Assembly (NCBI GenBank): GCA_018238155.1
Contig: JABCTZ010000006.1
Location: forward strand, 32,001-96,000
Length of the DNA: 64,000 nucleotides
Direction: 5' to 3'
From: Candidatus Heimdallarchaeota archaeon
Lineage (GTDB): Archaea; Asgardarchaeota; Heimdallarchaeia; JABLTI01
Numbering within the stretch: the stretch's first letter is position 1; each line of letters opens with the position of its first letter. The notes below the pieces were generated by a model. That model saw only the letters and a list, made by a program, of their open reading frames with translations. It was not told where the DNA came from and ran no database searches. Positions 38,186-49,206 of the stretch are shown piece by piece. Made by a program: the position numbers and the translations under genes.

Positions 38186-38314
38186 AACCAACTCGCGCTA
38201 TTATATATTACCCCCAATAGAATAAAAGCAAAATTGCATGGTTAAAAGACATGTAAAGGTTGTACAAACTAATAATTCCTACTGTTAGAAAGCAAATATT
38301 TTTCTAGTGGAAAG
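38186..38314 (+). other. 5' arm of the 16S pre-rRNA processing stem (BHB)
   Basis: GTTAAAAGA(38241)-CATG(38250)-TAA-AGGTTGTACAAAC(38269) pairs with 39980-40008; flanking helices CCTACTGTTA, TGGAAAG and CAACTCGC also pair with the trailer. Confidence 0.9.
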
Positions 38315-38403: not shown

Positions 38404-39894
<1,491 letters not shown>

Positions 39895-39952
39895 CTGAAA
39901 TCGATTGGTCCTCAGGACCGATCTTTAGTCAATGGAGGGGAAATTAAAACCC

Positions 39953-40054
39953 CTTTCCAAGTTTGACTTAATAGTAGGCGTTTGTATAACCTCATGAAAT
40001 CTTTTAACTGCAGAAATAATGGGTAGAAAAAAAGCGAGTTGTGTTAGTTAGGTT
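39953..40054 (+). repeat. 3' arm of the 16S processing stem = repeat copy R1
   Basis: GTTTGTATAACCT-CATG-AAA-TCTTTTAAC (39980-40008) ... GCGAGTTG ... GTTAGGTT, then T-tract. Confidence 0.9.
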
Positions 40055-40231
40055 GTTTTTTTATTATTTTTTGATTATGAAATAAGTGTTTAAGCGTCAT
40101 TTTTCTTGTATAGTTTTCTTCTCTGTAGAACCTTTACTTTTTTTCTTAGAAAATTTGACTATTAGAGCAACAATAGCTATTTCTAGAATAACCGGGATTC
40201 CATACAGAACAAAATAGAAAATAAATGGGCG

Positions 40232-41818
40232 TTACTGTTGTTTTTTTCGAACTATGAATATGATGATAGGTATGGCAATAATTGGTATGATAACTAAAAA
40301 GGCGAAATAGCCATAATTACATTTGGTAGGTTCAACAAAAATCGCAATAAAAGCATCAGTATGATCATCAAAGAAATTACGATAAGCATTCTGCGTAGTA
40401 GGGAAATCACTTGAAAAAGTTTCACCCATTACATAGCAGCTCCCATCACTTGCAACTACAACACTGTTAGCGCGATCAGTAGAATCCCCTCCTAGGTAAG
40501 TACTCCAGAGAAGTGAACCTGATGGAGAGAACTTTGTAATAAAAGCATCATAAATACCTCCTATAGTACTATTAGAAACCCCCTGTACTGGGAAATCACT
40601 CGAGGAAGTCTCACCAACGACATAACAGCTGCCCTCACTGGAGACCGCAATATCGTAACCGCGATCCCCGTTATACCCTCCTAAGAACGTACTCCAGAGT
40701 AAGGATCCATCCTTTGCCAGTTTGACCACGAAAGCATCTCCATACCCGCCGTAGGTGTGATTATGAGCATTGTACATGGGAAAATCAGGTGACCCTGTGA
40801 ATCCAGTAATATAGCAGCTGTCATCCCCTGCTACAGCAATACCAAGAGATTCATCCCAATAACTCCCACCAAAGAAGGTACTCCAGAGTAAAGAACCATT
40901 GGAAGAGAATTTGGTTATAAAAGCATCCCAATCACCAGCATAAGTGTCGTTAATTGCATTTTGTGTGGGAAAATCAATAGAAGAAGTAAATCCTGTGATA
41001 TAACAGCTGTCATCACTTGCTACTGCAACACCATACCCCCATTCTCCACCATACTCCCCGCCCAAATAAGTACTCCAGAGGAGAGCGCCATCAGGGTCGA
41101 ATTTGGATACAAAGACATCATAACCGCCATTAAAAGTGCTATCGAATGCCTTTTCAGTGGGAAAGTTCGTGGAGGACGTCAATCCAGTAACGTAGCAACT
41201 ACCATCACTTGTTGTTGCAACACTACACCCCATATCCCAGTTATTTCCTCCTAGGTAGGTACTCCATAACAGCGTACCATTCGTAGCAAATTTACTAAGA
41301 AAGGCATCGGTAGCAACATCAATCCCACTTCCATAGGTAGCATTGTAAGCATTCTTTGTAGGAAAGTTTGAAGACCAGGTTGTCCCCGTGACGTAGCAGC
41401 TGCCATCACTCGCCACAGCTATATCATAACCATAATCTAAATCACTCCCACCAAGATAGGTACTCCAGCATAGAGTGCCATTTGCAACAAATTTGGACAC
41501 AAAAGCATCTCTACCACTATATGTATAATTGAATGCATGAAGCGTTGGGAAATCTCCTGAGGAGGTTCTTCCTGTGAGATAATAGCTGCCATCCCCTGCC
41601 ACAGCAATGCCTAAGCCAATTTCTGTTCCACCCATGCCACCAAAAAAAGTACAATACTCAAGAGTAGGCATAGCAGTCTTCTGGACTCCAAATTGAGTCT
41701 GAGGAAGTATTTGTCCACTGCCAAAATTCAGAGGAAAGGGGGAACAAAGTATTAGAATTACAAAAAGAACGCCACAAGTCCCTCTCTTGCTTCGATTGGA
41801 AAATATCGTTTGACCCAT
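40232..41818 (-). CDS. SBBP beta-propeller repeat surface protein
   Basis: Signal peptide, about 7 repeats of WSTYLGG..D.G..IAV.SDGSCYVTG.T.S.DFP...DAFxxKF, C-terminal TM and RKK; visibly more G+C than flanks. Confidence 0.85.
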   Translation of the reverse strand: MGQTIFSNRSKRGTCGVLFVILILCSPFPLNFGSGQILPQTQFGVQKTAMPTLEYCTFFGGMGGTEIGLGIAVAGDGSYYLTGRTSSGDFPTLHAFNYTYSGRDAFVSKFVANGTLCWSTYLGGSDLDYGYDIAVASDGSCYVTGTTWSSNFPTKNAYNATYGSGIDVATDAFLSKFATNGTLLWSTYLGGNNWDMGCSVATTSDGSCYVTGLTSSTNFPTEKAFDSTFNGGYDVFVSKFDPDGALLWSTYLGGEYGGEWGYGVAVASDDSCYITGFTSSIDFPTQNAINDTYAGDWDAFITKFSSNGSLLWSTFFGGSYWDESLGIAVAGDDSCYITGFTGSPDFPMYNAHNHTYGGYGDAFVVKLAKDGSLLWSTFLGGYNGDRGYDIAVSSEGSCYVVGETSSSDFPVQGVSNSTIGGIYDAFITKFSPSGSLLWSTYLGGDSTDRANSVVVASDGSCYVMGETFSSDFPTTQNAYRNFFDDHTDAFIAIFVEPTKCNYGYFAFLVIIPIIAIPIIIFIVRKKQQ

Positions 41819-42016: not shown

Positions 42017-43015
42017 CTAGGAACCAAACCATACATAACTTGAACAGTCACTTATTTGAGCATATTGAGCATCACCAACTGGGGATTGACAGCAACTGTA
42101 AGCAATAGAGAAACCTTCGGTACCTGTAGCATCCAAATTTAATTGTGCAAAGAAGTAATGTGAAAACCTTCCTTCATAAGGTAATGGTTGGAAAAGATAA
42201 GAAAAAGCAGGTTTGTCTTCACGACTGCAGGATATAGCAAGATAAGGTGAAGCTGCAAAATCGTCCACCCAGTAACCTGAATAACATGATTCCACAACAA
42301 TACATTTACGGGGAGCCTCTAATGCATCCATATAGTCTCGAAAATCATCTGAAGAGATTGTGGTTCCATCTTCTTTAAATTTTGTATGGGAGTGTTCATT
42401 ATATGTACTTCCATGACCAAAGATATAAACAAATACGGTGTCTTGATCATGTTCGTATGCATCTATAGTATTCATTGCACTTTGAACAGCTGCAACATTT
42501 GCGCAGTCTTCGTATTTATAGAATTTCGTATATCCATGTTCTTCTTCTAGAATATCAATATAATCGTCAATATCTTGTTCCCGTCCTGCATCACTTGCCC
42601 AGAAGAAGACACCTATCTTTTCTGTTATTCCGACAAGTTCAAAATCATTTGTTCCTCCACCATAGACCGTTTCCATACCAGAATTGAAACGAGTTTTGGT
42701 TGCAGTCAAATAATAAGGTGCATTACCATTCAATGTGACACTAAATCCATAATCACCTGAACTGTCTGTTGTATCTATTCCTAGTATATTGAAATAGCAG
42801 TCAGCGAGCATTATTGTAGCACTACTTAATGGATTATCAGAACAATCTTCTACTGTTCCCTCAAAGGTTGATACACCTTGTACACTCATTATTCTCATTG
42901 TTGAAAAAAGGAGAATGATGATAGCTAAGAAACTTATTTTTTTTTCAAATATTTCATTATTAAATCTCCAATTCAAAAGTGTTGAAAGAAAATTCTTTAA
43001 CAGAGCTATTACCAA
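42017..43015 (-). CDS. Secreted clan CD (caspase/legumain-like) cysteine peptidase with N-terminal carboxypeptidase-regulatory-like domain
   Basis: FEGTVED..NPLSSA..TTDSSGDYGF; catalytic dyad FVYIFGHG and IVVESCYSG; natural ATG at 42957 is out of frame across an A9 run. Confidence 0.75.
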   Translation of the reverse strand: MVIALLKNFLSTLLNWRFNNEIFEKKISFLAIIILLFSTMRIMSVQGVSTFEGTVEDCSDNPLSSATIMLADCYFNILGIDTTDSSGDYGFSVTLNGNAPYYLTATKTRFNSGMETVYGGGTNDFELVGITEKIGVFFWASDAGREQDIDDYIDILEEEHGYTKFYKYEDCANVAAVQSAMNTIDAYEHDQDTVFVYIFGHGSTYNEHSHTKFKEDGTTISSDDFRDYMDALEAPRKCIVVESCYSGYWVDDFAASPYLAISCSREDKPAFSYLFQPLPYEGRFSHYFFAQLNLDATGTEGFSIAYSCCQSPVGDAQYAQISDCSSYVWFGS

Positions 43016-43148
43016 TGGTGTGTAATAAAGTTACCTACATAGTATACGTTATCTTTTCTCTTTGTGAAATTTCCAGTAAGAATTCAAAAGCTTAAAGAAT
43101 TGTGAGAAAAGGAATTTTTCACTCAAATTAAAACATTGATTTACTACT

Positions 43149-43309
43149 AACCTGCGGCTGGATCACCTCCTCTGAAATCGATTGGCCCTCAAGGCTAATC
43201 TCTGGTCCATGGAGGGAAATTTAACCCCTTTACATGTTTGACCTTAATTGTAGGGTTTGTTCAACCTCATGAAATCTTTTGTCATGCAAGAAAAAATATT
43301 TTTGTGCGA
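43149..43309 (+). repeat. R2: duplicate of the 16S 3' end plus trailer
   Basis: AACCTGCGGCTGGATCACCTCCTCTGAAATCGATTGG (37 bp) identical to 39872-39908, then diverged trailer with intact AACCT-CATG-AAA-TCTTTT at 43263-43280. Confidence 0.95.
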
Positions 43310-43352
43310 ATCTTTATAGTTTATATCTAGCTCTTATATAATAGGTGAATAT

Positions 43353-43547
43353 ATGAATTCAATTAACTTGAAAGTAGATGAACCAATAGTTATCCTTTCT
43401 TTGGCTGATTATGAAGCTTTAATAGAATCACTTGAAATTTTAACTGAAGATTCCAAGATATTAGAAGAGATTACAAAAGCAAGAAAGGAGATTGTTACTG
43501 GTCAAGGCGTGCCTCTCAAGGAATTTCTCAAGGAATTGAAGTCATGA
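43353..43547 (+). CDS. Phd/YefM-like antitoxin
   Basis: VILSLADYEALIESLEIL...ARKEI..GQGVPLKE; ATGA overlap with the RelE gene. Confidence 0.8.
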   Translation: MNSINLKVDEPIVILSLADYEALIESLEILTEDSKILEEITKARKEIVTGQGVPLKEFLKELKS

Positions 43548-43801
43548 TCTATGATATAATATTGGCACCTCAACCACAAAAATTTCTTAAAAACATGAAA
43601 AATAAATGAATATTTCTTCAAATTGAAGTTGCTTTCACAAGTATATCTTTAGATCCTAAAAAAGGCAAACAATTAGTAGGTGCTCTAAAGGGATTGTGGA
43701 GTTGGCGTGTAAGTTCTTATCGAATTTTATATGAAATTCAAGAGCAGAAAGTAATTGTATATGTACTTCGTATTTCACATCGGAAAAAAGTCTATGAGTA
43801 A
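43544..43801 (+). pseudogene. relE: RelE/ParE toxin interrupted by in-frame TGA at 43607
   Basis: Own translation MIYDIILAPQPQKFLKNMKNK*IFLQ...GKQLVGALKGLWSWRVSSYRILYEI...VLRISHRKKVYE. Confidence 0.85.
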
Positions 43802-43828
43802 TTTTTAGTCTGAATTTTCATATCTTTG

Positions 43829-43898
43829 TGTAGGTTATTGTACTCTTTGATTATCTTTTACCATTCAAGGAGCGAAATTTTATTGTGCGAGTTAGGTT
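43829..43898 (+). repeat. R3: truncated 16S trailer-arm copy
   Basis: ATCTTTTACCATTCAAGGAGCGAAATTTTATTGTGCGAGTTAGGTT. Confidence 0.85.
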
Positions 43899-44026
43899 CG
43901 TTGTTTTTAGATAAAGTTTTAACCTTTTTTTAAGAAGTTTTTACTTTGCACGTGAGTTGATTTCTTATAAGTTGAAAGGTATTATTTAATAGTTTAACTT
44001 CTATATAGTATAAAAGAGGAATTCGT

Positions 44027-44278
44027 ATGAGTAAATTTGAACGAATTGTCCGTGATCCTGAGATTTGTGGAGGACAACCAACCATAAAAGGCACTCGAGT
44101 TCTAGTTCTCGATATTCTTGATTGGGTTAAAGAAGGACTATCTTTCGATGAAATTTTGGAGAGCTTCCCCAGTATTACTCGAGAGGATATCCAAGAAATA
44201 ATTGCATATGCAAAGGATATGATTGCAGGTGAGGTTGTCATTTATGGTTCTAAGAAAAGCGAAGTTTCTATTGGATGA
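44027..44278 (+). CDS. DUF433 antitoxin
   Basis: RIVRDPEICGGQPTIKGTRV...FPSITREDI. Confidence 0.9.
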   Translation: MSKFERIVRDPEICGGQPTIKGTRVLVLDILDWVKEGLSFDEILESFPSITREDIQEIIAYAKDMIAGEVVIYGSKKSEVSIG

Positions 44279-44603
44279 GAACATTCCTATAAAGCTTGAA
44301 CAATTATTCACTTCTCTTGAGTTATCTTGTGTTTCAATTCGGGATGTGAAGTGGTTTGGCATTAAAAATAGAAAATTATCTGAAAGAGTCAAAAAGAGCT
44401 CCTATATTCTAATTACTCGTGATAAAGATTTCACGTTTCTCTGGAACAAATATGAAGTCCAAGTTATTTATTTAGCTATTGACCCTCCACTTCTATCTTC
44501 TTTTCTTCAACCTCTTCAGAATTTACTTCTAAATTGGCACTATAACCTAGACAAACCTTTTCTTATAATTTTGACTAAGGATACAATTCGTTTAAGACAA
44601 TGA
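44223..44603 (+). CDS. DUF5615 PIN-like toxin
   Basis: FLLDENIP, LITRDKDF; follows DUF433; likely start MVLRK. Confidence 0.8.
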   Translation: MQVRLSFMVLRKAKFLLDENIPIKLEQLFTSLELSCVSIRDVKWFGIKNRKLSERVKKSSYILITRDKDFTFLWNKYEVQVIYLAIDPPLLSSFLQPLQNLLLNWHYNLDKPFLIILTKDTIRLRQ

Positions 44604-44672
44604 TTTGTATTAACACTCTGAAATCTTTTACCAAGTAAGGAGCAAAAAAAGTATTATTGTGCGAGTTCGGTT
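44602..44672 (+). repeat. R4: truncated 16S trailer-arm copy
   Basis: TTTGTATTAACACTCTGAAATCTTTTACCAAGTAAGGAGC...TTATTGTGCGAGTTCGGTT. Confidence 0.85.
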
Positions 44673-44682
44673 AGATAATCAT

Positions 44683-45048
44683 TTAATCTTTAGGTCTTAT
44701 TCGAATTGCTTTGGTTGTAATAATAACTAATTTGCCTTGATATCTAGGTTCTTTTAAGTCTCTAAGCATAAGGCTTCTATGCAATAGTTGATTTGTTGCT
44801 TCAGGATGTGGTGATAGCACTTGCAGAATAATTGTTAATGGAGGTTTTTCTTTCGTGTTATGATATATTTCTCCGAATCTTCTATCATGTGTAATCAACG
44901 GAGTAGAATTTTCTGTTGCATAATCATATATTTCCTCATCAGTTATACTTGATTTCAAAATCTCATCAATTTCTAATACTATGAATTTATTTTTTCTCAA
45001 AATTTTCTTCGTTGATTCTGATAAGCATTCATCAACAATTACTCTCAT
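44683..45048 (-). CDS. DUF5615 PIN-like toxin
   Basis: MRVIVDECL, TDEEIY, LITHDRRFG. Confidence 0.85.
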   Translation of the reverse strand: MRVIVDECLSESTKKILRKNKFIVLEIDEILKSSITDEEIYDYATENSTPLITHDRRFGEIYHNTKEKPPLTIILQVLSPHPEATNQLLHRSLMLRDLKEPRYQGKLVIITTKAIRIRPKD

Positions 45049-45063
45049 TGCCCCTCTCCTCTC

Positions 45064-45303
45064 TTACTCTACTATTGGGATAATTTCATCTTCTGGGTGA
45101 TTAATGAGGTGAATTGAATATTCAAGTGTTGCTCGTATATCCTCTTCTGTTAATTTTGGATATTCTTTGATTATCTGCTCAAAAGACGCTCCGTCTTTTA
45201 GCATCTGTAAGATAATGTAAATTGGTATTCTAGTATTTCTAATGACAGGTTTGCCACCTAGAATCTTGGGGTTTACTTCTATACGATTTATTATTGGATT
45301 CAT
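45064..45303 (-). CDS. DUF433 antitoxin
   Basis: RIEVNPKILGGKPVIRNTRIP...YPKLTEEDIRA. Confidence 0.9.
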   Translation of the reverse strand: MNPIINRIEVNPKILGGKPVIRNTRIPIYIILQMLKDGASFEQIIKEYPKLTEEDIRATLEYSIHLINHPEDEIIPIVE

Positions 45304-45374
45304 TTCTTCTCACAATTATATTTATCTGGCTGACTAATAAAGTTTTTTTGGATTTCTAACAAATTTTTCCATAA

Positions 45375-45452
45375 TAGGAATTTGTTTACACAAAACATCT
45401 TGAAATCTTTTACCAAGCAAGAAGTGAAAAATAGTTTTGTACGAGTTAGGTT
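45375..45452 (+). repeat. R5: truncated 16S trailer-arm copy
   Basis: TGAAATCTTTTACCAAGCAAGAAGTG...TTGTACGAGTTAGGTT. Confidence 0.85.
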
Positions 45453-45592
45453 GTTCTACTTTTATTTGACTCTAATTTTTTTGATTTAGATTTTAAAAAG
45501 AATGAAACAAGAAATAAGAATTTCAAAATATCTTAAGATAGTGGATTTTACATTAAAAAAACCGTTTTGGTAACTAATTTTCTGTATTGTTT

Positions 45593-45850
45593 TTACTGAA
45601 GCATTTCGATGAGTTTATCTTTCGAGATATTGTTCCAAATTGCTACCTTCGTTAAAATATCGTTTAGAGTTCCTTTTGCAATCTCTTTATGTGTAACAAT
45701 AGTAATATGATGTTCTCCTGCTTCCCCTTTCTTTGTTAGTCTTATATGACTTCCTTTTTGTCTTACTACCCGATAATCTAGTTTATTCAGTAGCTTTAGT
45801 AGTTTCTTTCCACTAACTACTGGAAGCTTTGGCAATTGCTTGCACCTCAA
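45593..45850 (-). CDS. hicA: HicA toxin
   Basis: KLPVVSGKKLLK..VVRQKGSHIRL..HKEIAKGTL. Confidence 0.85.
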   Translation of the reverse strand: MRCKQLPKLPVVSGKKLLKLLNKLDYRVVRQKGSHIRLTKKGEAGEHHITIVTHKEIAKGTLNDILTKVAIWNNISKDKLIEMLQ

Positions 45851-46049
45851 ATTCAGACAAAGTTAAAATTCTTATCGTTTCTGTTTGCAATTCTTCCTCA
45901 AAGTGCACCTCAACGGCTTCTTCAATATTCTTTCGTAATTCATCTAAGGTTTTCCCTTGAGTAAAAATATCTGCATCCATTCCTCTTGCACACCAATTTC
46001 CCTCTTCATCTTGATATATTTCTAATTTTATTAGACGCATTAATTTCAC
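45813..46049 (-). CDS. hicB: HicB-like antitoxin
   Basis: QDEEGNWCA..IFTQGKTLDELRKNIEEAV. Confidence 0.8.
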   Translation of the reverse strand: MKLMRLIKLEIYQDEEGNWCARGMDADIFTQGKTLDELRKNIEEAVEVHFEEELQTETIRILTLSEFEVQAIAKASSS

Positions 46050-46117
46050 CTAATTATATCTTCTTTTTCTTTAATTATAAACTCATTTATTATTGATTAT
46101 ATTTAAAACTCATTCTC

Positions 46118-46207
46118 TTTTCATGTTCGATCTAAAAGTAGGATTTGTTTAACCTCATGAAATCTTTTACCAAGCAAGGAGCGAATAAATTATTGTGCTA
46201 GTTAGGT
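46118..46207 (+). repeat. R6: 16S trailer-arm copy with intact BHB half
   Basis: GTAGGATTTGTTTAACCT-CATG(46156)-AAA-TCTTTTACCAAGCAAGGAGCG...TTGTGCTAGTTAGGT. Confidence 0.9.
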
Positions 46208-46255
46208 CAGTTGTTATTATTTTTACTATTTTTCGTTTATCTTAATTGTAAATGG

Positions 46256-47491
46256 TCACTCAGATTTTTTCAGTTGTTTTTTTGTTCTTATCCTAATAGC
46301 AGCAATTACTTTTAGGACAATAACAATTAGAATGATAGAAATAACCGCTATTACTGATACAATTGTAATTATCATTTTAGTTTCAAAGGTTAGAGGAATT
46401 ACCATTGGAAATAATCTTTTAATTCTCTCAGGATTTGTAACATCATAGATAAAAAGGAACCAAGAATAATAAAAAGTCGTAGCAATCCAATCTTCCGTAA
46501 TTATTATACAAATGTTGTTTATCATGACTATTTTTTTATACTCTAACTTCAAACGGTCTTCCATTGAATGTTTATCGAGTTCAATAATATGTTCAAGATT
46601 TGTTTTATCTAATGTTAGTATTTCCCTTTCAGTTACTAGATAAACAATATTTTCAGATACATGAGCTGATTTTGCATTTTCTAATGTATAATTAGCTATA
46701 CAATTCAATCTATTATCATTTAGTATTTCATAAATCTTCAATCCCATATTATCGCAAGCATTTAGCTGATCATCCGACAATGAAATGCTGTTTAGATTGT
46801 CGAATTCATATTCAACTACAAAATCTAATTGAAGAGCACTATTTACTTCATAGATAGCTAAATTTTGCTCTCCGGTTATTACGAAAACTCTTTCCTCATC
46901 CATTATTACATCATTAAAGGAAAAGTTTCTCGTTGTATTACCAATTAAGTTCCAGTTGTTAAAATCTGTTAAATCATATGTGAGCATTAATTTACTTCCA
47001 TAATCGTTAGAACCAAAAATGAATAATTCATCATTGATTATAATCAATTTTAGTATTTCCAAATCTATTGTTGTAAGTATATTCACCAATGTAGCGTTTA
47101 TTTCACAATTAACTATCCCAATGAAATTATCATAGTGTCTTGCACTGAATAATATCTTATCATTGTATCTTGTTATATACCGTGCTAAACTGAGATTTGC
47201 ATTTTTTTCTTGATAGATTACTTGCGCTTTCGCTGGTCTACTTATATCGATTATCTGAAAACCTGCTGAGCTTGTTGAATAGATTAAATCTTCATATACT
47301 ACAAAATCAAAACTACAATGCATCACTGTATTGATCGTATAAAATTTGTCGATACAGACTTTCTTATTGATTGATGTATTTCCACTAATATATTGTGGAT
47401 TTTTGATGTTATTATAGTCTATGGACGTTCCAATGATAACTGTAATGATCATTGAAATTCGTACTAATTTAAAAAAATCGTTTCCTCTCAT
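46256..47491 (-). CDS. LVIVD-like beta-repeat membrane-anchored surface protein
   Basis: Repeats GFQIIDISRP, LTYDLTD, LFIYDVTNP; N- and C-terminal TM; start moved to the ATG of MRGND because the ORF-track extension to 47536 overlaps the promoter-like region shared with the paralog. Confidence 0.65.
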   Translation of the reverse strand: MRGNDFFKLVRISMIITVIIGTSIDYNNIKNPQYISGNTSINKKVCIDKFYTINTVMHCSFDFVVYEDLIYSTSSAGFQIIDISRPAKAQVIYQEKNANLSLARYITRYNDKILFSARHYDNFIGIVNCEINATLVNILTTIDLEILKLIIINDELFIFGSNDYGSKLMLTYDLTDFNNWNLIGNTTRNFSFNDVIMDEERVFVITGEQNLAIYEVNSALQLDFVVEYEFDNLNSISLSDDQLNACDNMGLKIYEILNDNRLNCIANYTLENAKSAHVSENIVYLVTEREILTLDKTNLEHIIELDKHSMEDRLKLEYKKIVMINNICIIITEDWIATTFYYSWFLFIYDVTNPERIKRLFPMVIPLTFETKMIITIVSVIAVISIILIVIVLKVIAAIRIRTKKQLKKSE

Positions 47492-47562
47492 AATGCATCC
47501 CGCTTTTCCATTCTCTTGTATTTCTTTCCTTTTCAAATTGATAAAATTTTTTGTAATGAGCG

Positions 47563-47577
47563 TGTGCGAGTTAGATT
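47563..47577 (+). repeat. R7: terminal remnant of trailer arm
   Basis: TGTGCGAGTTAGATT; the preceding ~60 bp also resemble 48905-48965. Confidence 0.6.
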
Positions 47578-47588
47578 AGTTCATTTTT

Positions 47589-48904
47589 TTATTCTTCTTT
47601 ATATTTCAATTCAGGTTTATTTTTCAGTTTTATTTTTTTAGATTTCTTCAACTTCCTCACAGAAAAGATAGACATAATTATAACAATAATCAAAATAAAT
47701 GGACTTGCAATACCCATTATTGGAAGAATTAAATAGTGAAATATGAGTGGTAATTTTATTATTGGAAATTGTAGTTTAATTCTATTCTTATTTTCTATAT
47801 CAAAGATAAAAAGATCGGTTTGTGTGTCAGGGGCACCTGTCATGTAATCCTCTGTCATAACTAAAACATAGTTTTTGTACAAGAAAATTTTCTTAAAATC
47901 TAGTTCTACTATATCCTTTAGCCTATATTTACTTCTGCATTTAATTTCATCATTTTCTACTTCTAAAAGTACTAAATTCTTTGAGTTTATGATGCAAATA
48001 ATATCATCCTTAACAGCAATTGACTTTGGTTGAGCTATATCATAACTTGCAATTTTTTCCGGATTATAAGGATCGTCATTATTGAACACTTGAATTTGGT
48101 TACTTTTTAATGCATACAGAAAGTTATCCTGAAAACTTATTCTGGTATATTCTTCTTCAAATTCTTTTACTTTTACTGGTGCACTTACATTGCTGAAATC
48201 GTAGACCAACAATTTGTTGTCAATAGTACTATGATATAGAAAATTATTATGGAATTTATAATCTAGGATATCATCATATTTATAATACGGTGGATATTGA
48301 TTCCCAATCACAATTTCTGAAATATTGTGACAACCAATTAAGATTGGATTATAGATATCACTAATATTGTATATTTCACATTGAGGGACTTCATATCTTG
48401 AACCAAACAAAAAGAGATTGTTCTTTTTTTGCTCTAAACGGTGAACAAAGCTTAAATTTGTACCAATTATTTTATTAAAGTATTGATCTTTTCATTTTCA
48501 ATAAATCCAATTACACTTTGATTAACATTATAATTTCCATCCATTGCCATGAACGTAATACTGCCATTATTGTAAAATGAGAAAATATATTCATAATCAA
48601 AATATCTTACCCATTTTAATTCTTTCCATCTTTGTAATTGGGAGATATTTCTTACAAATATTGAACTTGATGAGAAGCTAACGAGAACTAAATCATTTAC
48701 GCATGTAATATCATTGCACATCTTTAACATATGATTAATACTCAGTGGATTATTATTGAAATAATTTAAACTTTCAGTTTTAGCATTGTTTTTCTCAGTA
48801 TTCATATTTGAGTAATGATTCCGTAAATCATTCATTTGAACTAAAATTATGATTATAAAAAAAAAGGTATAAATAATCCTCTTCCTACAATTCTTTAATC
48901 CCAT
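47589..48904 (-). pseudogene. Frameshifted LVIVD-like surface protein, paralog of 46256..47491
   Basis: ORFs 48467..48904 and 47589..48410 join if one A is added near 48470 (TLIK-IIGTNLSF...LFGSRY); LLVYDFSNVSAP and LFIFDIENK repeats, C-terminal TM. Confidence 0.7.
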
Positions 48905-48965
48905 TTTTCCACTCTCTTGTATTTATTTACTCTTCAAATTAATAAAATTTCTTGTAATAAGAATA

Positions 48966-48978
48966 TGCGAGTTAGGTT
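48966..48978 (+). repeat. R8: terminal remnant of trailer arm, end of array
   Basis: TGCGAGTTAGGTT followed by a long T-tract. Confidence 0.65.
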
Positions 48979-49206
48979 TGTTTTTTTCTTTTTTTGTTTT
49001 TCGTTCGAGTTTTCCTATTATTTTCAACCCAAGAACTATACTTAATATTATTATGATAAAAATAATCCTCGATTTTTATTGTTTATTTCAATCAAAAAGA
49101 GCATGCCAAATTATTATTAAAGATAGAAAGATATTCTTCATTGGGATTTATACTAGGTTTATTATCTTAGATTTTGAATTCACAAGAAATTTCCAGGTGA
49201 AAAAGT

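Follow-up and report, generated by a model that had tools for sequence, protein, structure and literature searches.

We analysed a 64,000-nucleotide stretch of DNA, here called the window (C1:32001-96000, where C1 is a contig), from a metagenome-assembled genome (MAG) of a Candidatus Heimdallarchaeota archaeon (G000; 4.08 Mb in 46 contigs, ~32% G+C, 5.9% contamination). The window carries the genome's only full 16S ribosomal RNA (rRNA) gene; an Rfam search of the window returned no match besides this small-subunit rRNA, and ARAGORN found no tRNA genes in it. Behind the gene and its trailer come 3.1 kb with two minus-strand protein genes and no recombinase, and then a second, partial copy of the 16S 3' end. 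We refer to the true gene end with its trailer as copy 1 and to the partial one as copy 2, and coordinates are collected in Table 1. The second 3' end is real, and it marks the point at which a 3.3-kb two-gene block joined in behind the sole 16S gene.

In a MAFFT alignment of both copies, positions 43149-43185 and 39872-39908 form 37 consecutive identical columns. The match begins with the AA of the helix-45 GGAA loop, runs through the 3' strand of that helix and the anti-Shine-Dalgarno gene end, and closes with 14 nt of trailer; it contains GGATCACCTCCT, and its 16S-derived part is the last 23 nt of the gene. A match of this kind is far beyond chance. To the left of 43149, the bases (TTTACTACT) differ from their 16S counterpart (CCGTAGGGG). 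To the right, a repeat search of the window returned the direct repeat 39872-39947 / 43149-43224, continued by 39939-40005 / 43214-43280, and local alignment extends the homology over the full spans given in Table 1, with 83% identity between the trailers. Just two places in the 4.08-Mb assembly hold the 16S 3' end, namely the true gene end and copy 2. An earlier note on this DNA had described a duplicated 3' end running from the loop AA through 37 identical base pairs into a diverged trailer, and the alignment, with homology to ~43342, confirms that description.

The junction, or the layout around it, occurs in sequences assembled elsewhere. A Logan contig from an unrelated sediment run spans 43126-43323 with 3 differences and just 23 aligned bases to the left of the junction. 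In a relative, a separately assembled ENA contig (L074) carries a homologous peptidase gene followed by a partial 16S tail, ...GGTG/AACCTGCGG (the slash marks the junction here and below), with the same AACC start, and the closed long-read genomes G016 and G026 have the same layout. Because the Logan contig, the L074 contig and the closed long-read G016 agree, the copy-2 junction is not likely to be an assembly artefact. Low-depth Logan contigs from three DNA sequencing runs, with small shares of this sequence, gave a single piece spanning the junction, and the joined 'empty-site' form did not occur among them; no RNA run was listed among the sequencing runs that contain this sequence. The earlier note's view of the 3.3-kb segment as an insertion bracketed by direct copies of an rRNA 3' end and trailer is thereby supported; its word 'newest' applies in a relative sense only, since the L074 relative, whose peptidase gene is 89% identical in DNA to the window homologue (~11% diverged), already has an equivalent junction.

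Copy 2 is the best-preserved member of a local series of 16S-tail and trailer repeats that separate small cassettes. An nhmmer profile of the trailer and ~60 nt of distal sequence found six strong copies, all on the plus strand, at 39.9-46.2 kb on C1 downstream of the 16S gene, and no unit elsewhere in the 4.08-Mb genome. A dispersed genome-wide repeat, such as a miniature inverted-repeat transposable element, is ruled out by this restriction to the 16S locus. Two further remnants lie at 47.5 and 48.9 kb. Units of the window share their 3' limit, a T-run, and differ in where they start; copy 2 alone among the displaced units keeps a 16S-derived part. In the relatives G010 and L074, a homologous DUF433/PIN cassette is preceded by a unit that still holds its 16S part.

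Table 1. Features of the 16S locus and of the cassette array behind it (window positions)
Feature	Position	Strand	Description and basis
Pre-16S processing stem, 5' leader arm	38241-38269	+	Inverted repeat with 39980-40008
Single archaeal 16S rRNA gene	38404-39894	+	Rfam RF01959, 1391 bits; only full copy in genome
Helix 45	39861-39882	+	5' strand AGCCGTAGG 39861-39869; GGAA loop 39870-39873; 3' strand CCTGCGGCT 39874-39882
Repeat copy 1	39872-40067	+	Last 23 nt of 16S; functional trailer (hairpin, second hairpin, processing-stem 3' arm); ~60-nt distal segment ending in T-run
Cargo gene 1	40232-41818	-	528-aa membrane-anchored protein with seven 63-aa SBBP beta-propeller repeats; Pfam PF06739, 3.7e-22
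Cargo gene 2	42017-43015	-	Secreted Peptidase_C13-like protein with CarboxypepD_reg domain (Pfam)
Repeat copy 2	43149-43342	+	16S-derived 23 nt from loop AA at 43149-43171; identity to 43185; then diverged trailer and distal segment
Eroded trailer/distal unit	43820-43915	+	Upstream of DUF433/PIN cassette; nhmmer E 1e-14
Eroded unit	44592-44695	+	Between both DUF433/PIN cassettes; profile search and local alignment
Eroded unit	45353-45485	+	Upstream of HicAB cassette; profile search and local alignment
Unit with distal trailer, including processing-stem arm, kept	46101-46237	+	Profile search, local alignment, cofold
Remnant	47545-47600	+	Distal motif GCGAGTTAG and T-run only; local alignment
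Last distal-motif remnant, array end	48945-49005	+	Local alignment

The trailers of the two copies differ in a way that preserves structure. Functional copies and intact partial ones all have the hairpin behind the 16S end, formed by different, covarying stems, and copy 2 retains it (-10.9 kcal/mol, against -14.2 kcal/mol for copy 1) by way of a different stem. For the 5' leader arm of the processing stem, copy 1 is the best partner (cofold ddG, the change in free energy, -29 kcal/mol), and both copy 2 (-21) and the unit at 46105-46195 (-25) also stand well above shuffled sequences (-6 ± 3). Partial trailers moreover resemble functional trailers of other lineages: the L074a copy is 87% identical to the functional L075 trailer, the L074b copy 93% identical to copy 1 of the window, and the partial copy of G004 90% identical to the functional trailer of G005. 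Covarying hairpins and matches across lineages together indicate that the window copies are two alleles, each in use during its divergence and united only afterwards. This supports the reading of the trailer divergence given in the earlier note, that of a donor of a different strain or species.

Partial 16S tails with the genome's own trailer type are present in at least seven other Asgard genomes (G004, G010, G012, G016, G038, G070 and G127), the last of which belongs to another Asgard class. G010 and G012 have three each (those of G012 14.5 and 16.2 kb downstream among them), G038 and G070 two each, and the L074 contig three; in G026, trailer-only repeats, 96-97% identical, flank inserts 38 and 41 kb downstream. 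When each 16S end with 260 nt of trailer was compared locally with up to 18 kb downstream, repeats were found at 7 of 16 loci. The locus of G010, a member of the same genus, is syntenic with the window on its upstream side and, apart from one DUF433/PIN cassette, not on its downstream side. Cargo in relatives includes an M20 peptidase (G010, together with DUF433/PIN), SIR2-STAND, HEPN and NosD-like beta-helix proteins (G012), a leucine-rich repeat (LRR) protein, a subtilase and toxin-antitoxin pairs. A metagenome pattern scan for trailers of the copy-1 and copy-2 types gave no match; a second one returned three loci, each either a full 16S end or an array of the G010 type.

Several candidates were set aside in this survey. 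The G040:C171 tail proved to be a real 16S end with a short insert upstream. Three tails in G069 (L054, L055 and L056) have full 16S sequence upstream, so they represent multi-copy genes or a strain mix; on contigs C261, C676 and C247 of this 63% complete genome, full 16S 3' regions carry related but distinct trailers, as several rRNA operons or mixed strains would. About ten pattern matches with two mismatches lie in coding sequence and were attributed to chance. The G021 tail could be either a 16S gene with inserts or a partial copy.

To compare where the tails begin, we numbered positions from the G of GGATCACC, so that the loop spans -13 to -10 and the 3' strand begins at -9. On this scale, the 5' boundaries fall at -135, -39, -26, -22, -17, -13, -11 (four times), -9, -8, -7, -4, -1, +28, +36, +75 and +75. 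Nearly all boundaries inside the gene lie within its last 40 nt, about half are no more than 3 bases from the border between loop and 3' strand, and the mode at the loop and 3'-strand start recurs in lineages with unrelated trailers and unrelated junction flanks. With a scatter of ±3 nt around the loop and several boundaries in other places, the helix-45 site is preferred but not exact. The junctions make up a ragged series (GGAA/CC, AA/CC, /CC, /C, /TG), which looks more like variable end trimming at a break in the loop than like conservative strand exchange. No arm resembling the helix-45 5' strand was present at the far junctions, and the flanks differ in every case. The same loop point is hit in another way, as resident 16S genes of four other Asgard genomes carry ~30-nt inserts exactly at GGGGAA^CCTGCGG, and those of other lineages carry them a few bases to either side, which makes the loop point a recurrent insertion site.

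We found no integrase gene in the cargo of the window or in any other cargo read, and Pfam searches of the G010, G012, G016, G038 and G070 cargos returned no recombinase domain. The tyrosine-recombinase family PF00589 is absent from contig C1 and is represented by two genes on other contigs of the window's genome. Six-frame searches of whole genomes detected no PF00589 match at E<=0.001 in the closed G016 or in the 95%-complete G012, and the single match in G026 lies 2.2 Mb from the locus. XerA is present in most archaea, and the null results in G016 and G012 would cover it. The earlier note had proposed attL/attR-like copies made by a tyrosine integrase; the missing cargo integrase, the lack of PF00589 matches in G016 and G012, the absence of a symmetric far arm and the scatter of boundaries speak against that mechanism. 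Of the checks it suggested, the comparison of breakpoints in relatives does give clustering, at the helix-45 loop or where the 3' strand begins, and the search for tyrosine recombinases gave the two genes on other contigs, with none on C1 and none detected in closed G016. With no integrase in the cargo and no tyrosine-recombinase domain detected in one closed relative, the end of the rRNA gene itself looks like a site of gene capture.

A different type of enzyme gene does recur at the locus. In G016 (L040:9498-10118) and G040 (L037:275-883), the 16S trailer is directly followed by a LAGLIDADG gene with two motifs and the expected acidic residues (56% identity between the two), and another stands at a contig start in G061. 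A sequence search of the PDB with the G016 protein gave no significant match. In the window's genome, LAGLIDADG matches are mostly long, intein-like frames, together with one small open reading frame (ORF) on contig C20.

We consider it about an even call that copy 2 is the displaced older tail left by a homology-anchored insertion, with its far junction at a helix-45 break, and that the two copies are not a classical attL/attR pair. The repeat with its boundary and recurrence, the absence of an integrase and the allelic origin of the trailers are shown; the break, its cause and the direction of transfer we infer. Copy 2 would be the earlier 3' end and trailer of the 16S transcription unit, displaced 3.3 kb downstream by DNA from a related lineage that came with a 16S tail and trailer of its own and, behind them, two surface-protein genes. 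After a break at helix 45, the 16S side would have been repaired on the foreign allele, and this repair would have copied the allele's tail together with the genes that follow. Since the left joint falls within conserved 16S sequence it leaves no seam, and the probable event there is homologous recombination or copying; the right joint would be non-homologous, formed at the break in or beside the helix-45 loop. A LAGLIDADG-type endonuclease like those behind the 16S trailer in related genera could have made the break, or it could have arisen from the hairpin-forming, heavily transcribed gene end, and a dedicated integrase would have had no part in it. Judging from the position of the gene, its two motifs with acidic residues and the ragged junctions, LAGLIDADG proteins may cleave helix-45 DNA. 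Repeated rounds, together with recombination among units, would have built the cassette array at 39.9-49.0 kb and shuffled its cassettes.

We put forward a wider proposal more tentatively, as possible rather than probable: that integrase-free gene capture at the 16S 3' end operates across Asgard archaea. A helix-45 break, in some genera made by a free-standing LAGLIDADG protein encoded behind the 16S trailer, would be repaired from a foreign 16S allele that drags in its tail and genes, and successive rounds would build integron-like arrays of defence, toxin-antitoxin and surface genes while pushing the 16S and 23S genes apart.

A number of observations weigh against displacement by a helix-45 break. 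The 23-nt 16S part is intact both in copy 2 of G000 and in L074a despite a difference of ~19% between their trailers, which hints at gene conversion or selection, neither of them foreseen by a simple scar model. Decay does not rise strictly with distance from the 16S gene: in G010, the third copy is better kept than the second, and the window unit at 46101 is better kept than those at 43820-45485. The boundaries themselves reach beyond the loop, and L074 junctions a and c both read TTGGTG/AACC, so that some boundaries may be inherited with a moving cassette and not be independent. The count of boundaries is also shaped by how copies were found, as the pattern scans were blind to copies starting 3' of CTGCGG and ascertainment favoured those retaining CTGCGG..GGATCACCTCC. 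As to the enzyme, the helix-45 cleavage site is hypothetical, no LAGLIDADG gene lies near the 16S gene in G000, and the G016 LAGLIDADG query found a homologue in 0 of 11 relatives within the family of the window's genome (f1). End joining, to our knowledge, is poorly documented in archaea.

Cassettes might instead move as circles formed by homologous recombination, looping out with one unit and re-entering at any other, including the one attached to the 16S gene, so that the boundary is made once per lineage and then inherited. We judge this rather unlikely, although it has observations in its favour: the units, at 130-190 nt and 83-97% alike, are suitable partners, the DUF433/PIN cassette occupies different array positions in G000, G010 and L074, the shared junction of L074 a and c fits a single origin, and unit similarity is out of step with synteny. 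It leaves unexplained the boundaries near helix 45 that appear independently in at least five lineages of family or genus level, each with its own trailers and unrelated flanks, and G000 and L074, homologous on both sides of the junction, have different sequence in the 20-38 nt beside it. Site-specific integration would make copies 1 and 2 attL and attR: a tyrosine recombinase, or one of another type, would cross over in the helix-45 region and insert an element with a 16S tail in its attP, the recombinase gene lying elsewhere or on a lost or visiting element. Direct repeats that contain a gene's 3' end, a boundary in the loop of a stem-loop as at tRNA genes, the clustering of boundaries at helix 45 in several families and the genome's two PF00589 genes on other contigs all suit it. 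We nevertheless think it improbable, given that no cargo read has an integrase gene, that G016 and G012 have the same structure without a detected PF00589 match, and that the far junctions, whose flanks are all different, lack an arm like the helix-45 5' strand; the boundaries, moreover, are ragged by a few bases and some are far away, and repeats of 130-190 nt that match the host's own trailer type are unlike a short conserved core.

The remaining alternatives carry much less weight. Duplication in place, or a second rRNA operon that decayed where it lies, would account for two copies that at 83% are near relatives of each other. It is very unlikely, as the 23 nt of 16S are intact against a 17% trailer difference whose changes preserve structure, copy 1 is closer (93%) to a partial copy of another organism than to copy 2, and the cargo between copies varies among close relatives with conserved upstream synteny; deletion within a second operon should also leave random boundaries, in contrast to the recurrent ones at helix 45. 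That the assembler joined unrelated pieces at a conserved 16S word is scarcely credible. Although the MAG has 46 contigs and 5.9% contamination, and strains' 16S ends are identical, the sequence before copy 2 is unique and not 16S, and the Logan contig from another study, the equivalent L074 junction and the two closed long-read genomes all repeat the arrangement. Just as hard to credit is a retro-copy, in which complementary DNA of the 3' part of pre-16S RNA would end on its 5' side where reverse transcriptase stalled at the helix-45 dimethyl-adenosines and on its 3' side at the terminator T-run. N6,N6-dimethyladenosine (m6,2A) does block reverse transcriptase, several boundaries fall immediately 3' of the loop AA (/CCTGCGG in G016), and all units share the T-run end. 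Dimethylation, however, takes place late, after the distal trailer has been removed, many boundaries take in the AA or further sequence and some starts lie upstream of it, and trailer-only repeats exist; no reverse transcriptase gene turned up in the loci read, where no family-level search for one was made.

The closest published counterpart is HeimM2, an 8-kb element behind the Candidatus Heimdallarchaeum 16S gene, at a 16S / tRNA-Arg(TCT) site that in a sister species holds the 44-kb HeimV2 (Wu et al. 2022, Nat Microbiol, PMC8813620). Our locus L040 in G016, a closed 3.08-Mb genome of Heimdallarchaeum, a genus neighbouring that of the window's genome, has the 16S gene, three ORFs that we could not assign, a 1171-aa LRR protein gene, the LAGLIDADG gene and an intron-bearing tRNA(TCT), and this matches the HeimM2 layout as the consulted passages of that paper give it. 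There, a 135-nt repeat starts exactly at CCTGCGGATGG (CCTGCGG), the first base past the loop, and brackets 6.65 kb with the LAGLIDADG gene outside; by its repeats, the 8-kb 'element' is thus a 6.65-kb insert plus a LAGLIDADG gene beyond it. Going by those passages, the window and HeimM2 have in common mobile DNA directly behind the only 16S gene of a Heimdall-group archaeon, repeat-rich surface-protein cargo and the lack of an integrase. The window differs in its cargo, in having no LAGLIDADG gene near the 16S and in its longer array, while its insert likewise sits immediately downstream of a single 16S gene. The searched passages of the PMC8813620 main text do not mention a duplicated 16S tail or trailer or flanking repeats, and full-text literature searches did not find 16S 3'-end duplications described as archaeal insertion scars. 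For Heimdallarchaeum, then, the integration site is published; the duplicated tail, the helix-45 preference and the absence of an integrase were not in the literature searched, as far as the passages available to us go.

Integration at genes for structured RNAs offers a broader comparison. For islands and proviruses integrated in the 3' parts of tRNA and tmRNA genes, a sublocation rule was reportedly drawn up by Williams in 2002. Those islands and the window share a structured RNA-gene target, an incoming replacement 3' end, an old end displaced as a direct repeat with a stem-loop boundary, and the capacity to build up tandem arrays; in the window, by contrast, the insertion targets an rRNA gene and includes no integrase, the 130-190-nt repeats co-vary with the host trailer, boundaries are ragged and cassettes measure 0.5-3.3 kb. 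Integron cassette arrays, which also occur in archaea (Ghaly et al., bioRxiv 10.1101/2022.02.06.479319), resemble the array in having a repeat of the same orientation at each cassette boundary, one or two genes in either orientation per cassette and many toxin-antitoxin pairs. The array differs from them in that no IntI lies beside it and its repeats are copies of the tail of the neighbouring rRNA gene. Folded as single-stranded DNA, six units gave z-scores of -0.9 to +1.4, no different from shuffles and without attC-like hairpins, so the units are not attC-like.

Homology-facilitated illegitimate recombination, which combines one homologous anchor with one illegitimate joint, is known from naturally transformable bacteria, and we know of no description of it in archaea or at rRNA genes. 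It parallels our favoured explanation in pairing a joint in conserved sequence with a non-homologous one and in needing no enzyme encoded by the element, whereas the illegitimate joints here concentrate at one hairpin and are not scattered. Selfish elements of ribosomal DNA, too, are aimed at rRNA sequence that is universally conserved: introns of archaeal rRNA genes encode LAGLIDADG endonucleases, and eukaryotic small-subunit genes have group I introns at their 3' end. The conserved rRNA target, the LAGLIDADG genes beside the 16S tail in G016 and G040 and the loop inserts in other Asgard 16S genes recall them. Unlike such elements, the DNA inserted here leaves the rRNA uninterrupted and its cargo consists of ordinary cellular genes; since the insert brings a replacement tail, no splicing is needed.

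If homology-anchored insertion at a helix-45 break is correct, accessory genes would have their landing pad in the cell's most conserved gene, in those archaea that stand nearest to eukaryotes, and the gene's universal sequence would be a homology anchor for recombination with DNA of diverged relatives. It would amount to an integrase-free rRNA-gene counterpart of integration at tRNA genes, and would explain the published, mechanistically unexplained elements beside the Heimdallarchaeum 16S gene. It would also give a concrete way for 16S and 23S genes to become separated. In the window's genome, the 23S gene (G000:C1:134047-136836) is on the same strand as the 16S, ~62 kb further on at the end of contig C1; in G020, the distance is 5.9 kb, with two trailer repeats in between. 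Cassette build-up behind the 16S may be the cause of this operon unlinking. Finally, a spare 16S tail whose anti-Shine-Dalgarno and primer-binding sequence is intact can lead rRNA annotation and assembly astray.

The insert and the array have further features of their own. Cargo G+C is 38-40%, compared with ~32% around it. In the SBBP gene, seven 189-nt (63-aa) repeats at 40398-41610 share 63-73% DNA identity with each other, and the Peptidase_C13-like protein comes from a family that is Asgard-wide and has paralogues elsewhere in this genome, on other contigs. Array intervals hold one small module each: an ORF without a Pfam match that we take, on our own reading of its sequence, to be Phd-like, two DUF433/DUF5615-PIN pairs, HicAB, and membrane proteins without a Pfam match. 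Four consecutive modules of toxin-antitoxin type fill 43353-46049, namely the 64-aa Phd-like ORF, with no intact partner toxin ORF of >=40 aa behind it, DUF433 with DUF5615/PIN on the plus strand, the same pair on the minus strand, and HicB-like with HicA. The plus-strand pair is 74% identical in DNA to the G010 pair and 79% identical to that of L074 over the DUF433 part; its array position differs. Beyond it, 46256-48904 contains three minus-strand genes (426, 273 and 145 aa) in two modules, the 426-aa gene and the 273- with the 145-aa gene, each then followed by a plus-strand distal-motif remnant. The 426- and 273-aa proteins have C-terminal membrane anchors, and the 426-aa product, the sole one searched, has no Pfam match.

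In the resident 16S genes of many Asgard genomes, the last 50 nt contain inserts of 29-39 nt that form hairpins, at no fewer than five distinct points: GTCGTAA^CAAGG, CCGTA^GGGG, GGGGAA^CCTGCGG (exactly in the loop), after CCTGCGG, and GGAT^CACCTCC. Such inserts are present at loci L050 (G044:C52), L057 (G070:C26), L031 (G012:C23), L037 (G040:C171), L034 (G021:C13), L078 (G116), L079 (G099), L080 (G106) and L081 (G086). Possible identities are mini-introns, what is left of introns that bore an endonuclease, or expansion segments. Were the mature rRNA to keep an insert in the dimethyl-adenosine loop, that would be remarkable. G016 additionally has, on the minus strand at L040:2690-2740, ~200 nt past the real end, a degenerate inverted 16S 3' end (GTAACAAG...GGATCACCTCCTAGAG; 79% over 44 nt); in a read-through transcript it could form a duplex with the 16S tail, and it could alternatively be a scar left by an inverted insertion.
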